Assembly (NCBI GenBank): GCA_016839605.1
Contig: JAEOTX010000211.1
Coordinates: 1 to 28,588 of the forward strand
Direction of reading: 5' to 3'
Origin: Candidatus Thorarchaeota archaeon
GTDB taxonomy: Archaea; Asgardarchaeota; Thorarchaeia; Thorarchaeales; Thorarchaeaceae
DNA length: 28,588 nt
Positions 12,121-23,629 of the stretch are shown one piece after another. Both the position numbers and the translations under genes were made by a program. How positions within the stretch are numbered: the first letter of the stretch is position 1; every line of letters begins with the position of its first letter. Below the pieces are notes generated by a model. That model searched no databases, had not been told where the DNA came from, and worked only from the letters and a program-made list of their open reading frames with translations.

Positions 12121-12687
12121 TATCTGAGAACTAATCGTCCTTTGAGTCCAACCATCGCTTTTGAATCCGGGTTGTTTATACATTTCTTAAGATTAAACAT
12201 TTCCAATAACACGGTGTCAACGATGAGAATCGATAACATTTCATTATTCGATAAGCAAGGACGCGAATTGAATTTCATCACCAGAGGGCACACATCATCA
12301 ATAACTGAGATCGAGATAAGGGGCAATGAGACTGAACCCTGGCGGTGTTTCTGCCAGAGATAACCAACGGGGGAAGCAGATCAGGTTAAGTTAAAACTGG
12401 TGATTGAACGGAGATGGAAAAGGACACTGAAGAAGAATCTTGTATCGACGATAGTTCCTAAAAGAAAATTTCCCACTGGAGAGATTATGAGGGTTCTCTG
12501 AGAAGATGAGAAGAGTGGAAGCGGAAGGGCGGCAAGACTAGATAATGCAAAGTCTCTTGTACTACCGCGCTTTCTAGATTGACCCCATCATTGAGTAGGT
12601 GCGTATAATTATTGTTTGGTAGCTCTTACAATATTACACAGTTACTTACTTGATTTCGGTCTCCAAACGAATTGGCTGTGTCATATT

Positions 12688-13965
12688 ATGCCGCTAACAG
12701 ACTTCCCCAAAGTGGTTGAGATAAAGGACCCTCTACATGGTTATGTAGCTCTCTCAAAAGTAGAGAAAGCGATAATAGACCTGCGGCTGACCCAGAGGTT
12801 GAGAACCATCCGTTCTCCCGCTGGCGTATACATGGTCTTCTCGGGTGCTGACACCTCTCTGATGGGGAAGCTTCTGGGATTCATGCACACCACTCACATC
12901 TTGATGGACTATCTTGGAGGCAACAAGGAAGAGATTCAGAAGGCACGTCTTGCTGCAATGTTCCTGACGCTCTCCACAGGTCCATGGGAGAATGTAATTA
13001 ACGAATACTTGACTGTACGCGGACTCAACCGCAAACAGCTTGCTGAGTTGATCATCAAAAAATCTCCAGCCGGTGACAGACTTGATGAATGTGGATATAC
13101 CCGTGATGAGATTGTGAGCACTATCAAACGTGGGGTGCCTATAAAGGGCGTCCGTTTTGATCTTGAAACTGCACCGATAAATCCCGAGCTGGTAGACCGG
13201 CTGGAGCGTGATTCTTACTTCTCAGGAGTAGAATATGCACAGCTCGAGTTTCGAAGGTTGTTCCAGTCCACGAGGGTTGCAAAGAACAAGATTGCCATAC
13301 ATCGTGGAGCAATATTCACTTTCGAGTCATATCTCTCCGCGGGAGCCAATATGTTTGATGCCGTATACTATCACAAGTCTGTGCGCGCCGCCGAACTCAT
13401 GCTACTGAGGATATTGGACGAGGCGGGTACCGAGCTTGCACCTACACCTCGGGATGATATCGATGCATACCTAAATCTAGATGATATTTCCTTCATGGAT
13501 CAACTACTAAATCCGCCTAATGATGCGTCGGAAGGGATGCAAAATGCAAGTAAGCTGTTCGAAGACTTTAATGCTCGTTACCTAATCAAGATGGCAAGTG
13601 AACGTGCCATATCCGACGTTGCGTTTCTCCAGTCAATCTCCACTCCTGATGGATTATACAATGTAGAGAAGGAGATTGCAGACAATGCTGGGATTGATCC
13701 AAGCAATGTCTTTGTCGATTACCCTGACAGATGCTCTGTGAGTTTCTATCCTGGAAAATTCGACATTGAAGATCTGGTGTTCTTTGAGCGAGGTTCAAAG
13801 GGCTACGAGTTCTGGCCTGTCGAAGATGTTAGTCTGCTTGCCAGGAGTTTCGAAAGAAGGATCAAACTGGTTAGAGTCTATACTACTCGCGGCTATCGTT
13901 CAAAGGTGAAGAAAGCTGCAGATGCTCTACTGGAGAGCATTGATGCTCCCGGTAGTCCTGACTAA
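12688..13965 (+). CDS. HD-superfamily dNTPase-like (COG1078/SAMHD1-like) protein with degenerate active site
   Basis: IKDPLHGY, IID..TQRLR, GA, LG, GP, RD and YYHKSVRAAE scaffold motifs are present; the His/Asp metal ligands are replaced. Start set at ATG 12688. Confidence 0.85.
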   Translation: MPLTDFPKVVEIKDPLHGYVALSKVEKAIIDLRLTQRLRTIRSPAGVYMVFSGADTSLMGKLLGFMHTTHILMDYLGGNKEEIQKARLAAMFLTLSTGPWENVINEYLTVRGLNRKQLAELIIKKSPAGDRLDECGYTRDEIVSTIKRGVPIKGVRFDLETAPINPELVDRLERDSYFSGVEYAQLEFRRLFQSTRVAKNKIAIHRGAIFTFESYLSAGANMFDAVYYHKSVRAAELMLLRILDEAGTELAPTPRDDIDAYLNLDDISFMDQLLNPPNDASEGMQNASKLFEDFNARYLIKMASERAISDVAFLQSISTPDGLYNVEKEIADNAGIDPSNVFVDYPDRCSVSFYPGKFDIEDLVFFERGSKGYEFWPVEDVSLLARSFERRIKLVRVYTTRGYRSKVKKAADALLESIDAPGSPD

Positions 13966-14481: not shown

Positions 14482-14600
14482 CGTTCGTTTGTCATTTGAC
14501 CATCAATATCGAATTCATTAGCTTACGAAATACCTAATAGAGAGCAAGTAGGCTTGGAGGAACGGACATCCACCCTGCACGCCATAGGAGAGGGAGAAAC

Positions 14601-16439
14601 ATGTTCACTTGCAGGAAATGCCGGGAGCCTCATTATATTCAGGCAGCACAGATTAGGGGTAATAACCTTCGAGTCTTTCTTCAATGCATGAATGGGCACA
14701 AAGACAGACGAGACCTGTCGCGATTTCAAGCTGACAATGCAGCTTTCGATCTGTTCCGGGGATTGTTCACATGCGTTCAATGTGGCTCAATAATGGATAT
14801 CGCTAGTACAGATGCCCATCGGGATAAGGTCGAGTATATCTTTCTATGTCCCATACATGGTCCTCAGAGAAGGGTGGCTCCAACCCTATACCATCCGACG
14901 GTCAATCAGCTCCGGACAGAGGCCAATGCAGCAAAATCGATGCTTGACGCAATGAGCTGTCCACGCTGTGGCCAAGTTTTTGTGATACACGAGATTGCGG
15001 AGAAAGGAGAGTTCCTTGAGCTGAAATCAAAGTGCCCTAATGGTCACAAGGAGATGCGATACGCGACCCGTGGTGCTGACGAATCAATACTGAAGACCGT
15101 TCTCAAACGACTTGTCCATTGTGATACCTGTGGTCTACCTTGCACTATCCAGGACAAGAGTGTGAAACGCGACAAGATGCGTTTAGAACTACTATGTCCT
15201 GTTCACGGTTCAAGTAAGAAGGAATTACCTACGACTTATGCTGATCTACTTGATGATGTTTCACAGGCGGTCACGGAGGGGACACGTCTTCGGTCTACGC
15301 TGAAGTGTGCCGATTGCGGTAGCGCCCTCTCGATACGCAATATCGAAGCATCAAAGGATGAATATAAGATTAAAACAATCTGCACCGATGGACACTCGTT
15401 CGAGATGATTCAAAAGATCGACTGGAGTGATGATGCTACTGAAGAGATTTCACGGGCCATTCTGAAATGCAATGAGTGCGATTTACTGACTGAGGTTGCT
15501 TCAAAGAAGGTGGATGGCACGAAAGCTGAGTTAGAGCTCTCATGTCCTCTTCATGGTTCTATGAACAAGAAACTTACCGTTGATGCGCTCAAGAACTTGG
15601 AGCGAATGGAGGAGAGCATCGACAGACAGACTTCAATTGATGAGAGCTTGAAGTGTGTGAAATGCGGAACTCCAGTGGTCATAAAGGAAATTAAGACTGG
15701 TAAGGAAGCGGTCGAAGCCAAAGTGGAATGTCAAAAGGGCCATGGGGACAGTCGACATTATCTCAATTCATTATCACCAGCTGCTCTTGTAGCAATTTAC
15801 GACAAGTCGTATGAGTGTCACAAGTGCCATCAACCACTCAGTCTACTGGGAATTGAGCAGGAAGATTCGAAGAGCATTGTGAAGATGAAGTGTGAGAAAC
15901 ATGGGGAGCGAAAACATGAGATTCCCTTTGAACACAGCCTCCCCATGAGAGATGCATTTACCGCAAAAGCAACAATGCCTTATCTAGAGTCCGTTATGGA
16001 AGACCTTGGACATGAAGAAGTGTGCTCATTTCAATTTGAATCCGGATCCGACATTGAGGAGCTTCTCCAAACTGTGAGAAGTGTCATTGAGCAGCACGAC
16101 TTGCATTTCGTATCTGAGAGTAAATCGACCAATATGGTATCAGCTTGGTACTATGGAAAAGCACTCAAAGGCGATCAGTTTGTTGTTGTTGGAGCAGTTT
16201 CTGAGGAAAACAAAGATATCAAGATACGAATCTTCTCAGACAATGAGAAGAGTCTAAGTACTCTACTGGCACATATGCGTGAGAACCTAAGGGAAGTACT
16301 ACTTCGCATACGTGCAGACGCAGATGACATTCAACCACTCATTATCCAATGTGAGAAGTGTGGTGCTGGACTATCCAAGAGAGGTCTGCCTGGCGAAACA
16401 ACGCTCTGCGAGCACTGCGGCGTACCTTTGCATTGGTGA
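14601..16439 (+). CDS. Multi-zinc-finger repeat protein (8x CX2C-X21-CX2-3H) with alpha/beta C-terminal domain and terminal Zn ribbon
   Basis: GGAG-rich SD; eight equally spaced Cys3His modules; terminal CEKC...CEHC. Confidence 0.85.
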   Translation: MFTCRKCREPHYIQAAQIRGNNLRVFLQCMNGHKDRRDLSRFQADNAAFDLFRGLFTCVQCGSIMDIASTDAHRDKVEYIFLCPIHGPQRRVAPTLYHPTVNQLRTEANAAKSMLDAMSCPRCGQVFVIHEIAEKGEFLELKSKCPNGHKEMRYATRGADESILKTVLKRLVHCDTCGLPCTIQDKSVKRDKMRLELLCPVHGSSKKELPTTYADLLDDVSQAVTEGTRLRSTLKCADCGSALSIRNIEASKDEYKIKTICTDGHSFEMIQKIDWSDDATEEISRAILKCNECDLLTEVASKKVDGTKAELELSCPLHGSMNKKLTVDALKNLERMEESIDRQTSIDESLKCVKCGTPVVIKEIKTGKEAVEAKVECQKGHGDSRHYLNSLSPAALVAIYDKSYECHKCHQPLSLLGIEQEDSKSIVKMKCEKHGERKHEIPFEHSLPMRDAFTAKATMPYLESVMEDLGHEEVCSFQFESGSDIEELLQTVRSVIEQHDLHFVSESKSTNMVSAWYYGKALKGDQFVVVGAVSEENKDIKIRIFSDNEKSLSTLLAHMRENLREVLLRIRADADDIQPLIIQCEKCGAGLSKRGLPGETTLCEHCGVPLHW

Positions 16440-16445
16440 ACAGAA

Positions 16446-17009
16446 CTAATCTCCTGTCCATTCAATGGAGGGATTCTCTAAGGCTCCGAGATGAACCATA
16501 ATTCTCTCTACTAAAGAGCTCACTAGATCATCGACAGTTTCCGGACGATGCCAGAATGCTGGACTCGCAGGCATCACCACTGCTCCGGCCTCTGTTGCTG
16601 TTGCCATATTGCGAATATGAATTAGGTTCAGAGGGGTTTCTCTAGGAACAATGACAAGCTTTCTACGTTCTTTCAGAGCACAATCTGCTGCCCTAGCCAC
16701 CAGATTGTCCGCATATCCGTGGGCAATACCAGCCAAGGTCTTCATCGAGCACGGGACAATTGCAACTGCATCCAGCGGGTAACTTCCACTAGCGGGTCCT
16801 GCTGCCAAATTGTCCTCTCGATATGTCTTGTGTGCTTCATTTCCAAGAGTCGTTGCGCTTAGCCCTGTTTCGTGCTTGAGTGTTGCTTCTCCCCACTTTG
16901 TGACTACAAGGTGCACTTCATGCCCTAGTGCCTTCAATTGACGGATCAAATGCACTCCATATAATGTACCACTAGCTCCTGTGATACAAACGAGAATCTT
17001 CTTACTCAT
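16446..17009 (-). CDS. ubiX: Flavin prenyltransferase UbiX
   Basis: ITGASG, ASGS, PCSMKTLAGIAHG, RAADCALKERR, PRETP, PASPAFW. Confidence 0.96.
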   Translation of the reverse strand: MSKKILVCITGASGTLYGVHLIRQLKALGHEVHLVVTKWGEATLKHETGLSATTLGNEAHKTYREDNLAAGPASGSYPLDAVAIVPCSMKTLAGIAHGYADNLVARAADCALKERRKLVIVPRETPLNLIHIRNMATATEAGAVVMPASPAFWHRPETVDDLVSSLVERIMVHLGALENPSIEWTGD

Positions 17010-17086
17010 TTGGCTGTCGACTCCATTGAAGTGTTTTCCTTCAAACGTGATTCCTCATTTGCCTTTCTGTTTTGACACTGACTGCT

Positions 17087-18931
17087 TTAGAGTAAGAATG
17101 TAAGCAGCAAGGCAATCAGAAACGATGCTGCACCAACACGGATTCCCACGCGTTTCGCTATCCCAGCAGCCTCAGCAATGTTTTGGGTGAGAATGTCGAA
17201 CCCTCTCTCACCGAAAGTACATAGATTCTTGACCTCGCCGAAACCAAGCCCCATCCTTACTGGAGAAACGTTCTCACGAGCCTTGTTAGCGGCGATTATG
17301 ATAGCTTCCATAATCTCCTGAGGTTTGTTTTGTCCTATCGGAGGATAGCCTCGACTTGAAAGTGAAATTGCATTCACCACATGTGTGTCTGTTGTCAAGA
17401 CTTCTGCATCATCGAATCCCTGTGTCATCAGAATTCGAATAGCTTCTTCCCGAAAGCCGGGTTCCATGTTGTTACCGTCAAGAGACAGCAAGACGACTTC
17501 GCGCTCTCCGCCATCCAGTACCAAAGCGGTCACACCACCGGGGCCCATTCCTTCATCCGGACGTATATCGTTGGGCACTACTCTGAAGACTCCAGCTGAT
17601 ACCTTCATTTTTGGATTCTTCACTGTGGAGAACACCGCACTAGAGACCGCACCAACGTATTCTCCAGCCTCAGGGTCTCCCGGCATCACCGAAACTGCTT
17701 CTCCATCGATGCAGTTGTGAGCATCAACAATAGACACCCTCTCAATTTCGGGCATCCGTTCCCTCACCATGTCAGCAGCAGCACGACCAACATCCAATGA
17801 AATATCATCAGTGAATTCAGGTGCGCTTGTGCTGATGGTGAGAACATCATTTCCTGCAAAGAGAGTCCAGACTTTGAACTTACCAAGGTCTGACCAATGA
17901 GGCCCAGACATAGTATCATGGACTAGTGTTTCACCAATTAGTCGGTCGATTTCTGCCATGACAATCGGGAAGTCCTTTTTCGAGGTGAGGTTCTGTTGAT
18001 GAGTACAGCTTCCATGCATAACGAAGGCTGGCACTCCATGCGTCTGCTCAATGTGTTCCATAATAGCTGAAGGGAGACCGCTACTTCCAATCTGTCGAAA
18101 AGGTCCAGGATGTACGTATTCAACAACTCCTACCGCAACGAGACCTGCATCGTTCTTGATAACGAGAATCTCAATTGGAATGTCCTGCATCTCTCCGATC
18201 TTTGATAGAGTTGCTTCCATGGGTTCAGAATTGTTGGTGAGATAGTCATACCCGAATGCTCGTAGGAGTTCTGGTCCATTGATGTTGAGGTCTCTTTCAA
18301 ATGGGACGCTCACTGCGCGAAAGATGTAGTTGACTGCTAAGGATAACATGAGAAACATGAAAACTGCCGCTAATAACCACAAAGTGGGTAAGACATAGAT
18401 CGCTCCTCCAAATCCTCCCAGCGCAAAAACCATCAGATACCATAAAGCTGGTATCATCATTGCAGCGATGAAGTTTCGAACTGGATGATAGTCACTCAGC
18501 CCTGTCACAAGGAATGCAAAGAGCATGTATGCTGCGCCAAGTCCCAGTATCCAGAAGCGCACCTCGTAGAAGGTACTGCTGGTCAAGAAGCTGAGAACAC
18601 TACCGATTACTCCAAACACCACCCAGAAGAAGATACCAAATTGGACAGAACCTGCTGTCCTTCTAGCATCAAGAGGTGATCCTTCCTTCCTAACAACCAA
18701 GTAGAGCAGTCCAGTTCCAGCTAATGATGGAATGGCGAGGACAAGGATTGAGATAGAAACTGTGGCAATAATGTCGATTCCTGGTGTGGATTCAATCCGA
18801 AGTGCTGCGGAGATGACTGCGCCTAGCAAGACAGCCACAAGAATTCTGGCAATGATTCCTCTATAGGTGGGTAGCTGCCAGACCTTAGAGTAAAGCCTCA
18901 CAGTTTCCTTGACCTTGGCCTTCTCGCCCAA
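17087..18931 (-). CDS. DUF2070 family membrane protein (predicted ceramidase-like hydrolase)
   Basis: N-terminal TM bundle, then HPGPF..IGSS, HG.CTH, DAHN, DGNN and TTDTH motifs. Start moved to TTG 18931 to avoid the PadR promoter. Confidence 0.88.
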   Translation of the reverse strand: MGEKAKVKETVRLYSKVWQLPTYRGIIARILVAVLLGAVISAALRIESTPGIDIIATVSISILVLAIPSLAGTGLLYLVVRKEGSPLDARRTAGSVQFGIFFWVVFGVIGSVLSFLTSSTFYEVRFWILGLGAAYMLFAFLVTGLSDYHPVRNFIAAMMIPALWYLMVFALGGFGGAIYVLPTLWLLAAVFMFLMLSLAVNYIFRAVSVPFERDLNINGPELLRAFGYDYLTNNSEPMEATLSKIGEMQDIPIEILVIKNDAGLVAVGVVEYVHPGPFRQIGSSGLPSAIMEHIEQTHGVPAFVMHGSCTHQQNLTSKKDFPIVMAEIDRLIGETLVHDTMSGPHWSDLGKFKVWTLFAGNDVLTISTSAPEFTDDISLDVGRAAADMVRERMPEIERVSIVDAHNCIDGEAVSVMPGDPEAGEYVGAVSSAVFSTVKNPKMKVSAGVFRVVPNDIRPDEGMGPGGVTALVLDGGEREVVLLSLDGNNMEPGFREEAIRILMTQGFDDAEVLTTDTHVVNAISLSSRGYPPIGQNKPQEIMEAIIIAANKARENVSPVRMGLGFGEVKNLCTFGERGFDILTQNIAEAAGIAKRVGIRVGAASFLIALLLTFLL

Positions 18932-19020
18932 AGTTAATCCATCCTGTTCCCTAGCACCTCGGTCAAAACCTCTCTTATCAACGTTATCGAAGTACAGGTG
19001 TATCACGCCGGAACAATAAC

Positions 19021-19075
19021 CTTTATATCGCATTCGATAATCGCATTCGATATTAGACTATTATCATATTCGATA
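19021..19075 (+). promoter_or_regulatory. TATA-like box overlapped by three TATCG-N4-CGATA-type inverted repeats (candidate PadR operators)
   Basis: TATCGcattCGATA (19026-19039), AATCGcattCGATA (19039-19052) and TATCAtattCGATA (19062-19075); CTTTATAT at 19021. Confidence 0.7.
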
Positions 19076-19090
19076 TTGGGCGTGCCTATT

Positions 19091-19633
19091 TTGCAGAAAC
19101 CTGGAACTCATGATCCTGATTGCGAGCCTATCAAGATGCCCCATTCCATCCCGCGGGGGCTCTTGAAACACGTGATTATCCGAATGCTTCACTCAAGGGA
19201 CATGACTGGGACTGACATCATGAAAATCATGGATGAACGGACCGAGGGTCATTGGCGGCCAAGTCCTGGCTCCATCTACCCGCTTCTTTCGCAGCTGGAG
19301 GAGGAAGGCATTATTGAGGCTGTCAAGACTGAAGGAAGAAGCAAGACATACAGCCTCTCCAAAGACGGTCGTGCCCGGATAAATGAAATCCTTCACAAGC
19401 GGGGTGATGTTGAACACAAGGCACGACTCAACCGAATGATGCTATTACAGCTCCTAGAACCCTATGACCGAGTTCACTTCCACATCAGTGGAATCAACCA
19501 TGCGATTGACCACATAACTGATGCAATTGAAAAACTAACTGCATCAGAGAGGCGTAAAGTTGGCACACGGTTGACGAAGACATCAAAGAGATTAGACACG
19601 CTTTTGGAGCGAATTGAGCAAGAGGAAACATAG
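19091..19633 (+). CDS. PadR family transcription regulator
   Basis: RGLLK..I..ML....MTG.DIM...WRPSPGSIYPLLSQLEEEG...YSLS..G. Start is TTG 19091 or ATG 19136. Confidence 0.92.
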   Translation: MQKPGTHDPDCEPIKMPHSIPRGLLKHVIIRMLHSRDMTGTDIMKIMDERTEGHWRPSPGSIYPLLSQLEEEGIIEAVKTEGRSKTYSLSKDGRARINEILHKRGDVEHKARLNRMMLLQLLEPYDRVHFHISGINHAIDHITDAIEKLTASERRKVGTRLTKTSKRLDTLLERIEQEET

Positions 19634-19634
19634 A

Positions 19635-21488
19635 ATGGCTAACGAAAACAACAACAAGACAGGCCGCGGGGCGGCGATGCGATACATGCTGGGAGGTCTT
19701 GCGAGACATCCTGGAGCAATTACATTCGCTTTGATACTCACAGTAATTTCAACACTGCTTGTAACAATACCTAGCGTCATCATTGGAATTGCAATTGATG
19801 AGCTGGAACTCTCTGGTCTCAGTGCGCAGTTTACATTCCTCGTGTGGCTCATTGTTATCTTTGGCTTAGTCTACATGGCAATGTACTTCATAGTAGGCTA
19901 TGTCTGGGCAGTTGTCACTCTGAGGTGGGAACGAGACTCAAGGCAGGAGTTCTTTGAGGAGCTCCAAGACTTCAGCATGACCTTCCACGATGAGGTTGAC
20001 AGTAAACGATTACTCTCAGTGGCAATGCAAGATATTAGTTGGGTGCGATTCTCCTTGAATCCTGCCCTGCGGAATCTAATCGCGAGCCTCATCTCCTTTG
20101 GCATCACTGGCATATTCCTTGTTCTAGTGGACCAGACCGCTGGTCTGACTGGCTTAGTCACAGTATTTGGCTATCCGATTCCTGTACTCACCACAATCAT
20201 GCTGATTGGGACCCCCATCTATCTGGTCTTTGCCTATCGATATGCTAACGCCGTTGAGCCAGTCCGTAGGCAGCGTGCTGAGGACATGGAGAAGCTCACT
20301 TCAATTTCACAGGGAGTCTTCCAGGGCATCGAGGTGGTGCGGGCATTCGGTTCAGAAGATCATGAACAGGAGAAGTTCCATGAAGCTAGCAAGGCATACG
20401 AAAAGATGGTTGCTCGAGAGGGACAGCTAGCCGCCTTCTACATTCCTGCACTGGTCCTGACTGGAATGACTACTCTGGCATTTGCCTACGTTGGTTATGC
20501 TGTATTGTCCGGTTTACTCACCAATGGTGCTATGATCATGGTCCTCGGTCTGCTGCTTGCATTGGAAGGCTTGAATTACCATTTGCCAATGATGCTGCTA
20601 ATGCTGCGTGGCGGCTATGTGAATGCTCAGCGTATCGTCGACATCCTCAACTGGGAAGATCCATTGGAAGAGCCATCTGAAGAGGCATCACAAGTTGATT
20701 GGTTAGGTGACATTCTATTCGATAATGTCAGCTTTGCTTACAATACAAACAATGGAAAAACGGAGCATTATGCTCTGAAGGACTTTAAAATCACAATTCC
20801 TGGCGGATCCAGAGTAGCTCTAATTGGGGGGCCTGGAGGCGGCAAGAGCACTATTCTCAAGCTACTCCTGAGGCTTTATGATCCCACCGAAGGCTCAGTC
20901 AGTGTAGGGGGTGTGGATCTCAAGAATGTGACAACAAAACATGTCAGAGATATGGTTGGACTGGTTGAACAGGACATCTTTCTATTCAGGATGAGTGTTC
21001 GTGACAACATTGCGTTTGGGAGGACCGATGCCTCAGACTTAGAAGTGATAGAGGCCGCTCGCCGTGCTCAAGCAGATGAGTTCATTGTAGAAATGGAAGA
21101 TGGCTATGACGCAAAGATTGGTGAACGAGGGATGACTCTTAGTGGTGGTCAACGACAACGACTGGCAATCGCACGAGCGCTTATTCAGGACCCGAAGATT
21201 CTACTTCTGGACGACTCAGTGAGTGCAGTTGATGCCCAGACTGAGTTCTTGATGAGAAAGGCATTAGAAGAAGTCATGGTTGGACGAACAAGCATCACTG
21301 TCACTCAACGACTTCGCACACTTCTTGAGTCCGATTTGATTCTCATTGTGGATAAAGGGCAGCTGATTGCTGCAGGCACTCATGAAGAACTCCTTAGAGA
21401 ATCAGAACAATATCAACGCATCTTTGAGCGTCTGCCAGGAGCAAGATCGCTTCTTGATAGTATGTCTGTTCAGGGAGGTGCTGTGTGA
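19635..21488 (+). CDS. Heterodimeric ABC exporter subunit (TMD+NBD, degenerate Walker B/switch)
   Basis: 6 TM; Walker A GGPGGGKST; LSGGQRQR; Walker B LLLDDS (E->D); switch ITVTQR (H->Q). Confidence 0.93.
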   Translation: MANENNNKTGRGAAMRYMLGGLARHPGAITFALILTVISTLLVTIPSVIIGIAIDELELSGLSAQFTFLVWLIVIFGLVYMAMYFIVGYVWAVVTLRWERDSRQEFFEELQDFSMTFHDEVDSKRLLSVAMQDISWVRFSLNPALRNLIASLISFGITGIFLVLVDQTAGLTGLVTVFGYPIPVLTTIMLIGTPIYLVFAYRYANAVEPVRRQRAEDMEKLTSISQGVFQGIEVVRAFGSEDHEQEKFHEASKAYEKMVAREGQLAAFYIPALVLTGMTTLAFAYVGYAVLSGLLTNGAMIMVLGLLLALEGLNYHLPMMLLMLRGGYVNAQRIVDILNWEDPLEEPSEEASQVDWLGDILFDNVSFAYNTNNGKTEHYALKDFKITIPGGSRVALIGGPGGGKSTILKLLLRLYDPTEGSVSVGGVDLKNVTTKHVRDMVGLVEQDIFLFRMSVRDNIAFGRTDASDLEVIEAARRAQADEFIVEMEDGYDAKIGERGMTLSGGQRQRLAIARALIQDPKILLLDDSVSAVDAQTEFLMRKALEEVMVGRTSITVTQRLRTLLESDLILIVDKGQLIAAGTHEELLRESEQYQRIFERLPGARSLLDSMSVQGGAV

Positions 21489-23629
21489 TGGGAATGAGAG
21501 GTCATGGAGGTCCAAGGAGAATGATGGGTGGAAAAGAGAAGAGGAGCCGCCCAATCCGTGTCCTACTTGGTCGGATGATTCACTACCTTGGTCGGTTCAG
21601 GCGTATTGTCGCAATTGGTGCAGTTTTGTCCATTCTGGCTACAGCAGTCGCAGTATTTGATCCCCTTGTTCTATCAATAGGCATAGATGCGATTGAATAT
21701 GGCAATCCTGCATCTTACAACATCCTCTTGCTCTTGATAGGAATATACATTGTTATGAGAATCACGAGTTGGGGATTGTCAAGTGGGAATACTTGGATTC
21801 TCGCCAATGCGCAAGCAGGTTTTGTGCAGAACATCCAGGAGGATGTCTATTCCCATCTAGTGAGAGCTGACCTCTCCTACCACAAAGCTGAGCAGAGTGG
21901 CAATGTTACATCAAGAGTCACATCAGATACGGTATCGCTTGGAACAGGCATTCAGGTTATGATTAGCTTTGCAAGTCAAGCTCTGATGCTGGTCGCTACA
22001 TTCTTGCTTCTGTTCTTCACATCACAGGTGCTAGCGCTAACATCCCTAATTGTGATACCTGGAGTTGTCCTAATCGCGGTTCTTTTCGGTACAGTGGGTC
22101 AAAGAATCATGTTAGCGTCACAGCGAGCAGCAGGTGAAGTCTCTGGACAGATTGCGGAGAACCTGAGTGGCATTCATGTCGCGAAGGCATTCAATCGAGA
22201 AAAGGAACTCGCTGATGAGATGATGGAGCTCAATCAGAAATCATACAAATTTGGCTTCCGATTTATGATTCTAATGAGTGCCATGCAACCCCTTGTGAGA
22301 AGCATAGGTCAGTTTGCGGTAGCGGCGCTGCTGTTTGTTGGGGGTTCATTGGCTGCTGGCACTCTGCCTGTTCTGACAATTGGGGAGGTATTTCTTGGAA
22401 TAATGCTCGTCAGCCGTTTCATGTGGCCTCTCCTATCGCTGGCTATGATGTCATCGCAAGTGCAGGCTTCACTAGCAGCCATGGATCGTCTCTACGATGT
22501 GCTAGAGTCAAGGCGAGCTATAGATGACCTTGAATATGCCACGCCCCTTCTGGAAACAAATGATGGCATCACCTTTGACAATGTCACCTTTGAGTATGTG
22601 AAGGACACACCTGTACTGAAGAACATCGACCTCAAGATGGAGGCAGGGAAGACTATTGCTGTGGTTGGGCATACTGGAGCGGGAAAGACAACTTTGGCTG
22701 CTTTGATCAACAGGTTCTATGACCCTCAAGAGGGCAATATCCTGATAGGTGATCAAGATCTAAGAGAGATCACTTTAGACTCTCTTCATGGCACAGTAGC
22801 CCTCATACCTCAAGAACCGTATCTCTTCGATGCTTCAGTAATGGAGAATATCCGCTATGGTCGAGCCGATGCCAAAGATGAAGAGATTAAGGAACTATGC
22901 GGCCTAATCGGAGCCAATGACTTCATTGAGGTCTTGGCTGATGGTTATGACACATGTATCATAGAGAATGGGAAGAACCTTAGTGCTGGGCAAAGACAGA
23001 TGATCACAATTGCTCGAACGATGCTTGCTAATCCTCGCATTCTAATCCTTGATGAAGCCACTAGCAGACTTGATGCATACAGCGAGTCGCTTGTTCAGGA
23101 TGCCCAAGCAATGCTGTTCTCAGATAGAACTACCGTTGTCATCGCACATCGGCTCACTACTATTGCTAATGCTTCAAGAATCATAGTGTTTGAGGATGGT
23201 GAGATCATTGAGGATGGCACACACGAGGAACTCTTGGCTCTTAATGGCACCTTCAAGTCACTCTATGAAACATACTATGCTCACCAAGGATTTGAGGAAC
23301 TCACTGAGGAAACAGCACGTGTTGCTGGAGAGGAGGTCTCTAAGATAGGCGGTGAGTCTGCCCTTGGGTCACCTCAACCAAGCGGTGGAATGGGCATGAT
23401 GGGTATGATGGGCGGTGGAGGACCACACGGGATGCCCGGTGGACATGGAGGGATGCCTCGTGGAGGAATGGGCCCGCCAGCTGAAATGATGAAGAAGCTG
23501 CTCGAAAATCCTGAAGACATCCCACCCCCGATGCGCGGTCATCTGATTGAGAGGCTTGAACAATCTGACGACCCCGAGATGCAGGAGCTCCTACGAAAAT
23601 TGAAGAATCTCGAAAAGAAAGCTGAATAG
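21485..23629 (+). CDS. Heterodimeric ABC exporter subunit (consensus catalytic NBD) with Gly/Met/Pro-rich tails
   Basis: GHTGAGKTT, LSAGQRQ, ILDEAT, IAHRL. Start overlaps the partner's stop. Confidence 0.93.
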   Translation: MMGMRGHGGPRRMMGGKEKRSRPIRVLLGRMIHYLGRFRRIVAIGAVLSILATAVAVFDPLVLSIGIDAIEYGNPASYNILLLLIGIYIVMRITSWGLSSGNTWILANAQAGFVQNIQEDVYSHLVRADLSYHKAEQSGNVTSRVTSDTVSLGTGIQVMISFASQALMLVATFLLLFFTSQVLALTSLIVIPGVVLIAVLFGTVGQRIMLASQRAAGEVSGQIAENLSGIHVAKAFNREKELADEMMELNQKSYKFGFRFMILMSAMQPLVRSIGQFAVAALLFVGGSLAAGTLPVLTIGEVFLGIMLVSRFMWPLLSLAMMSSQVQASLAAMDRLYDVLESRRAIDDLEYATPLLETNDGITFDNVTFEYVKDTPVLKNIDLKMEAGKTIAVVGHTGAGKTTLAALINRFYDPQEGNILIGDQDLREITLDSLHGTVALIPQEPYLFDASVMENIRYGRADAKDEEIKELCGLIGANDFIEVLADGYDTCIIENGKNLSAGQRQMITIARTMLANPRILILDEATSRLDAYSESLVQDAQAMLFSDRTTVVIAHRLTTIANASRIIVFEDGEIIEDGTHEELLALNGTFKSLYETYYAHQGFEELTEETARVAGEEVSKIGGESALGSPQPSGGMGMMGMMGGGGPHGMPGGHGGMPRGGMGPPAEMMKKLLENPEDIPPPMRGHLIERLEQSDDPEMQELLRKLKNLEKKAE

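Follow-up and report, generated by a model that had tools for sequence, protein, structure and literature searches.

Introduction

Among the archaea, no known group is related more closely to eukaryotes than the Asgard archaea, whose multidomain proteins with trafficking domains of eukaryote-like type receive close attention. Appendage-like immunoglobulin (Ig) and TBP domains are described in archaeal, especially Asgard, multidomain proteins, which are regarded as probable interaction hubs and are linked to the endosomal sorting machinery ESCRT (Makarova et al. 2024, bioRxiv 10.1101/2024.02.06.579148). A different kind of precedent comes from the tetraether lipid synthase GDGT-MAS, in which a C9-X2-C12-X20-C33-X2-H36 site binds rubredoxin-type iron (PMC9433317). 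Here, we describe a protein that touches on both. Its gene lies in a 28,588-nt stretch of DNA from a Candidatus Thorarchaeota archaeon (GenBank assembly GCA_016839605.1, contig JAEOTX010000211.1, positions 1 to 28,588 of the forward strand), hereafter called the window. The 612-aa product (P0001; gene at window 14601..16439, + strand) is built from four double-ribbon units, which are followed by a platform domain and a C4 ribbon, and so unites an appendage-like platform with a repeat scaffold made wholly of zinc ribbons. In the following, we refer to it as the array protein.

Results

Eight regularly spaced Cys3His modules

Window positions 14601-16436 (+) translate as a single open 612-aa frame, and a regular-expression scan of the product gave eight CxxC-x21-C-x(2-3)-H motifs and no others, with first residues at 4, 58, 120, 174, 236, 290, 352 and 406. 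The spacer measures 21 residues in all eight. The odd modules, all on the + strand like the even ones, close with C-x3-H: module 1 with CMNGH (aa 4-33, window 14610..14699), module 3 with CPNGH (aa 120-149, 14958..15047), module 5 with CTDGH (aa 236-265, 15306..15395) and module 7 with CQKGH (aa 352-381, 15654..15743). The even modules close with C-x2-H followed by glycine, namely CPIHG in module 2 (aa 58-86, 14772..14858), CPVHG in module 4 (aa 174-202, 15120..15206), CPLHG in module 6 (aa 290-318, 15468..15554) and CEKHG in module 8 (aa 406-434, 15816..15902). This exact spacing and the alternation of CxxGH with CxxHG endings had been claimed in an original prediction made from the letters of the DNA, and both withstood the scan and a shuffling control, in which 20,000 shuffled versions of the protein contained a mean of 0.0046 motifs per sequence and never more than one. 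With start-to-start distances of 54, 62, 54, 62, 54, 62 and 54 residues, the array resolves into four 116-aa units that align to each other without gaps. Hence the four tandem two-module units joined by helices, as originally proposed, are recovered in the unit alignment, and the helices in AlphaFold models.

Altogether 79 homologues were found, nearly all labelled Thorarchaeota and mostly 612-620 aa long; some relatives carry automatic source annotations as Elf1 or RpoP-like. Across 30 orthologues with 43-86% identity, all 32 Cys/His ligands as well as four C-terminal cysteines are invariant or at least 90% conserved. The ligands of module 2 belong to the invariant class and those of module 1 are at least 90% conserved, and modules 3 to 8 are each backed by motif scan, shuffles and conservation. 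Only two of the 30 orthologues have an indel within the 450-residue array (of 2 aa and 1 aa). Distant relatives can have His, Asp or Cys as the fourth ligand. Once the ligands are excluded, the ribbons of a single protein share only 13-17% identity, same-type pairs being barely closer than odd-even pairs. The repeats are therefore old and each has its own conserved surface, with lengths held fixed. Judged from the sequences, such fixed lengths and differentiated faces would suit a rigid scaffold better than a uniform repeat that reads a periodic ligand.

Fold of the ribbon and of the double-ribbon unit

No Pfam or NCBIfam model matches the array protein at cut-off, and searches of PDB sequences with the protein and with a unit profile gave nothing significant (best match, eIF2-beta at E 0.11). 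With no Pfam, NCBIfam or PDB-sequence family above threshold, the repeat does not fall into any characterised family of these collections. Nor did the literature on tandem or repeated zinc ribbons in Asgard archaea or Thorarchaeota yield a description of such an array, in line with what had been supposed at the outset. The weak Pfam matches all belong to zinc-ribbon families (Zn_ribbon_recom, GRF-like, Trm112p, TFIIB, LysW, Elf1). The best of them, PF13408 (Zn_ribbon_recom), stays below its gathering score of 25.3 bits: the whole protein scores 18.6 bits, and unit 1, whose match covers only positions 1-29 of the 58 in the model, 22.5 bits; at E<0.01 it is matched by 32 of 97 units. A Pfam search at E<=10 detected no serine-recombinase catalytic or recombinase domain in the array protein.

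A full-length AlphaFold model based on the 30 orthologues reached a predicted local distance difference test score (pLDDT) of 88.8 and a predicted template-modelling score (pTM) of 0.67. According to DSSP assignments, each predicted module opens with a knuckle, after which come a beta-hairpin, another knuckle and the third strand (e.g. strands 12-19, 22-28 and 34-40), and is followed by one or two helices. Single modules superpose on the NrdR zinc ribbon with a root-mean-square deviation (rmsd) of 1.2-1.7 A over 41 residues, at Z-scores of 3.3-3.5 that are low, as expected at that domain size. As modelled, then, the modules are classical zinc ribbons and not a new fold.

The pairing of the ribbons is another matter. 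A model of residues 1-116, built from 97 aligned units, attained a pLDDT of 94 and a pTM of 0.83, on which grounds an odd and an even ribbon with their helices are predicted to form one compact 116-aa domain. Stand-alone proteins with one unit exist, and in the ESM Atlas the unit reaches a template-modelling (TM) score of 0.76 to a 162-aa Promethearchaeota cluster. Within the PDB, a counterpart of the double-ribbon domain was found neither by VIA-align (best Z 4.6 among 48,161 chains) nor by Foldseek (best E 0.02) nor by a second-look search (best Z 3.9). At TM >=0.6, the unit matches only four ESM Atlas clusters, two from Thorarchaeota, the 162-aa zinc-ribbon cluster from Promethearchaeota and one of 177 aa without taxa. 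Two further sets of matches were dismissed: an ESM Atlas feature search with the unit led to unnamed bacterial clusters with scores <=0.86, below a trustworthy level, and eight-bladed propellers and the like, listed by whole-model Foldseek against the PDB at E ~1e-5, proved to be repeat-strand artefacts (TM 0.07-0.16, rmsd >17 A). Structure prediction and Foldseek, the checks suggested alongside the original prediction, thus arrive at zinc-ribbon modules in a double-ribbon unit for which the PDB offers no counterpart. Of the proposal of a new metal-binding repeat, the conserved array, the predicted metal sites and the unit without a PDB counterpart stand, and the single module turns out to be ordinary.

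A platform domain and a C4 ribbon complete the protein

The span considered originally ended at window position 15930, and the best clue to function lies beyond it, where the gene goes on to encode an alpha/beta domain of 115 aa and then a ninth metal site (CxxC-x15-CxxC, residues 584-606). The former belongs to a platform domain (aa 453-575, window 15957..16325, +) with predicted beta-alpha-beta4-alpha topology, a TBP-like fold and a conserved AWYYG motif, assigned by VIA-align of the full model. The latter is a C4 zinc ribbon (window 16350..16418, +) with a conserved LPGET loop, whose four cysteines are invariant in 38 diverse sequences. In VIA-align, residues 453-567 of the predicted model match the platform of beta2-adaptin (3h1z_A) with Z 12.9 and an rmsd of 2.7 over 105 aligned residues, followed by alpha-adaptin (1w80_A, Z 12.6), gamma-COP (1r4x_A, Z 11.1) and AP-4 beta (2mj7, Z 10.8), and the next unrelated folds score Z <=8.8. 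Foldseek with the full model also lists the beta2 appendage, at a probability of 1.00. No Pfam appendage family was hit by the array protein at E<=10. A weak match of residues 513-577 to NCBIfam Sel_Asgard was discarded as unrelated, since hhalign of that family against the platform module gave a probability of only 24%. The genome has a true Sel_Asgard gene, for a putative selenocysteine system protein, elsewhere (G000:C181:3464-4039 (+), locus L028; 228.6 bits against a cut-off of 132).

Platform and C4 ribbon constitute one conserved module, recognisable by an AWYYG-type motif, an LTGLLAE-type helix and the four invariant cysteines. A profile of this module matches the array protein at E 5.1e-49 over positions 3-165 of 166, a value to be read in view of the protein's own presence in the profile alignment. 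The module occurs in proteins from Lokiarchaeota, Helarchaeota, Asgardarchaeia and Thorarchaeota. What precedes it there varies widely: TPR, beta-propeller repeats (SBBP, NHL, PD40) and right-handed beta-helices, and further Ig-like, PKD, cadherin-like, ricin-type lectin and CHAT protease domains as well as DDRGK/UFL1-like winged-helix repeats. The module was detected in 202 of 400 Asgard genomes, three families being nearly or fully covered (132/135, 14/14 and 4/4) with 1-7 copies each. Of the 85 genomes in the window's own family, 46 are positive, with a single copy in all but one of these. The copy in the present genome is the array gene itself, and in other genomes of the family the top matches lie in open frames of the same size.

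The two parts of the protein differ in their reach. In a search of 1.84 billion representative proteins with a whole-protein profile, matches to the array part came from only about 20 clusters, and matches to the C-terminal 155 residues from >150 clusters with other N-termini. The same profile drew a match from the insect Anabrus simplex (P0124, 2694 aa), in which 14 stretches align to profile positions 449-508 at E 1.2e-7; the match probably arises from repeats or low complexity on the helical linker rather than from kinship.

Distribution, paralogues and fusions of the unit

A survey with a profile of the repeat, as had been advised, placed the 116-aa unit in 148 of the 400 Asgard genomes, with 1-9 units each. 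By profile matching, no two-ribbon unit was found outside Asgard archaea, and arrays of four units came to light solely in the window's own family and in one sister family of the same order. Within the former, 68 of 85 genomes are positive, usually with four units (one gene) or eight (two genes). The unit is present in every sampled genome (2-19 each) of five other families; in the largest family it occurs in 45 of 135 genomes, mostly as one unit, and several Asgard families with 12-31 genomes gave no match to the profile. In these other lineages, it usually forms part of a 150-400-aa protein, in which a single unit is accompanied by one or more C-terminal C4 ribbons and often by a proline-rich linker. 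Throughout the paralogues, the spacing from odd to even ribbon is 54-55 residues, and that from unit to unit ranges from 58 to 76.

The same four units recur in a second Thorarchaeota family (758 aa, P0084), where the fifth module lacks one Cys and the His. A diverged form of the platform module with its C4 ribbon closes the 758-aa protein (hhalign probability 97%, E 5.7e-11), and ~130 extra residues stand before it. The present metagenome-assembled genome, which is 80% complete, holds the 612-aa type only. In one instance, a tandem paralogue of the 758-aa family (L001:3835-5919 (+)), with a Pro/Glu-rich linker, lies directly upstream of an array-gene orthologue (L001:6001-7848), and in about half of the genomes of the window's family eight units reflect the presence of both genes.

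Two large proteins connect these elements with winged-helix repeats. In the partial, 923-aa P0247 from Candidatus Ranarchaeia, five Cys3His modules are fused to UFL1-like winged-helix repeats (E3_UFM1_ligase, PF09743, 64 bits against a cut-off of 23.2; also DDRGK), and in the 1459-aa P0166 from Asgardarchaeia, similar repeats are joined to the platform and C4-ribbon module. Besides, in one closed Asgard genome, a single-unit gene (L031:6928-7386) sits directly downstream of a gene for a 1289-aa NosD-like right-handed beta-helix protein (L031:2908-6777 (+)); beta-helix regions elsewhere are also partners of the platform module.

Start codon and gene neighbourhood

The public gene call (P0002, 583 aa) begins at Met30 and thus truncates module 1, with loss of the first CxxC knuckle (window 14601-14690). 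We favour the start at 14601, because orthologues keep an MFTC(R/K)KC N-terminus and because a purine-rich GGAGAGGGAG stretch (window 14587..14596, +), which from its sequence may be a ribosome-binding site, lies 4 nt 5' of the ATG.

Upstream, the window contains a gene whose product matches HD_assoc_2 (window 12616-13965, +; PF19276, E 1.9e-17) as its only match, with no HD-domain hit, and a gene for a 151-aa membrane protein. The order HD_assoc_2, small or other gene, array gene is kept in two Thorarchaeota contigs at 49-54% identity, in one of which the middle gene is replaced by the 758-aa paralogue. Downstream (window 16446-23629) follow genes for a UbiX-type flavoprotein (-), a DUF2070 membrane protein (-), a divergent PadR regulator (+) and two ABC exporter proteins (+); DUF2070, PadR and the two ABC genes recur in the same order in two other Thorarchaeota contigs, and UbiX in one of the two. 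Single-unit genes in four other Asgard families have different neighbours. The neighbourhood is not conserved beyond close relatives, and the context therefore gives no functional lead.

Discussion

We give roughly even chances to the array protein being a cytoplasmic, Asgard-specific scaffold, in which the array is a binding arm stabilised by metal and docking falls to the C-terminal module. In this model, a small zinc ribbon would be locked at each Cys3His site by one metal ion with a structural role, most likely Zn2+; odd (C-x3-H) and even (C-x2-H) ribbons would pack through short helices into the 116-aa double-ribbon domain; and four such domains in a row would make up a binding arm of tightly conserved length. 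The arm would be attached to an adaptin-appendage-type (TBP-like) platform with its C4 ribbon as a common docking or hub module, whose variable N-terminal region would be the partner-binding part, a place that the array might fill in those Thorarchaeota genera that carry the module. The roles of arm and dock are assigned in this way because the C-terminal module is common to many proteins, and the region ahead of it is swapped among protein-interaction repeats. Zinc is considered the likeliest metal because the fold is that of a zinc ribbon, the fourth ligand drifts among His, Asp and Cys, and one site is lost in the paralogue; from the same sequence comparisons, the metal is most probably structural rather than redox-active. 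The adaptor or scaffold role, the rigidity and the metal identity are thus what we infer from fold, conservation and domain company.

A narrower version of this model, which we hold to be unlikely, supposes an appendage-type adaptor of Asgard archaea in which the array is the arm that selects the cargo or partner, and the platform and C4 ribbon dock on a shared sorting machine (ESCRT or a ubiquitin/UFM1-like system). If so, the four double-ribbon domains would replace the HEAT, TPR or propeller repeats of other adaptors, and the archaea nearest to eukaryotes would have a new class of repeat scaffold that is built with metal.

Several points weigh against the scaffold interpretation. Zinc ribbons often bind nucleic acids, and the array has an excess of conserved basic over acidic residues (40 K/R vs 29 D/E) with a basic residue after the His, so that a DNA, RNA or membrane ligand is possible. 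The similar site of GDGT-MAS binds iron, and zinc in the array is deduced. The structures of array and platform are predictions. The Ig-like beta-sandwich of appendages is absent, the platform following directly after module 8 and its helices in the model. Finally, gene order is kept only among close Thorarchaeota, and divergent orthologues have unrelated neighbours.

The basic residues lead to a rather unlikely alternative, namely that the eight ribbons align along DNA or RNA like tandem zinc fingers, with basic residues of the third strand contacting the phosphates. This would agree with the DNA-binding zinc ribbon of NrdR being the best structural match of the single module, with a basic residue that recurs three to four positions past the His (module +32/33), with array isoelectric points (pI) of up to 9.0 in some orthologues, and with the Elf1 or RpoP-like labels attached automatically to some relatives. 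Yet the array has almost no net charge (-5 to +18 across the orthologues), unit 3 is acidic (pI 4.8), and modules as divergent from one another as these are a poor fit to a periodic ligand. The partner domains in related architectures are protein-interaction repeats, and no nucleic-acid enzymes are conserved near the array gene. The upstream genes, in turn, might suggest a three-gene system of the array protein with the dNTPase-like HD_assoc_2 protein and the 151-aa membrane protein, for instance in defence or nucleotide sensing. The recurrence of the order in two Thorarchaeota contigs speaks for it; however, the neighbours of divergent orthologues are unrelated, a paralogue of the array gene takes the middle position in one contig, and PADLOC matched neither the array protein nor the two upstream proteins. 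We deem such a system improbable, and the three-gene order looks like inherited gene order, because the downstream genes are equally syntenic.

CPxHG resembles the rubredoxin knuckle CPxCG. It is conceivable that each Cys3His site carries a rubredoxin-type iron and that the array stores or relays electrons as a multi-centre iron protein, an option that we judge most improbable of those considered. In its favour are the strict conservation of all ligands and the closeness of the even-module pattern CX2C-X21-CPxHG to the iron-binding site of GDGT-MAS, which had been named correctly in the original prediction (PMC9433317). On the other hand, with one helix-separated site per 54-62 residues, short metal-metal distances appear unlikely, and neither does the array protein include a radical-SAM or other redox domain nor is a redox partner conserved beside its gene. 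A link to GDGT-MAS did not materialise in sequence or fold: at E<=10, the unit profile has no match to a GDGT-MAS chain in the PDB sequences, and no such chain figures in the fold lists. Among the three roles initially offered (scaffold, nucleic-acid binder, mononuclear-iron wire), the scaffold is therefore the one we favour, and the iron wire is weakened, because the paralogue tolerates the loss of a site, the fourth ligand varies, and the gene has no conserved redox partner beside it.

As far as found, the 116-aa double-ribbon domain, its fixed-phase four-fold array and its fusion to the platform module are undescribed so far in the literature on such ribbons, and the ribbon fold and the appendage-like platform are of already known kinds. 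Provided that the platform module acts as a shared docking site, several recognition arms would be interchangeable, the array being one of them, and the ligand of the array would inform what Asgard archaea sort or assemble. Should the protein be merely structural, it would still define a new domain family, present in 1-9 units per genome, that can be annotated across Asgard genomes.

Compared with known systems, the array modules are like the classical zinc ribbons of the NrdR N-terminus and TFIIB/TFIIS in having knuckles ~21 residues apart and a three-stranded antiparallel sheet, but unlike them in using Cys3His instead of Cys4 and in being paired by helices into a 116-aa domain that is repeated four times. 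The ligand pattern of GDGT-MAS (CX2C-X20-CX2H) is similar, not identical, to those of the even (CX2C-X21-CX2H) and odd modules (CX2C-X21-CX3H), and GDGT-MAS has a single site ahead of a radical-SAM enzyme, whereas the array protein has eight sites and no redox domains. A functional analogy may be seen in LIM-domain proteins, which likewise have two Cys/His metal sites per module, occur in tandem arrays and act as protein-binding adaptors; they differ in being eukaryotic and in their finger fold, and share no homology with the array. With the appendages of adaptins and COPI, the array protein has the platform fold in common, but it lacks their beta-sandwich and HEAT trunk and adds a C4 ribbon after the platform. 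Like the Asgard proteins in the accessible portions of Makarova et al. (2024; 10.1101/2024.02.06.579148), in which we found no mention of a zinc-ribbon array as a partner domain, it belongs to a set of architectures in which the platform module combines with TPR, Ig-like or winged-helix repeats.

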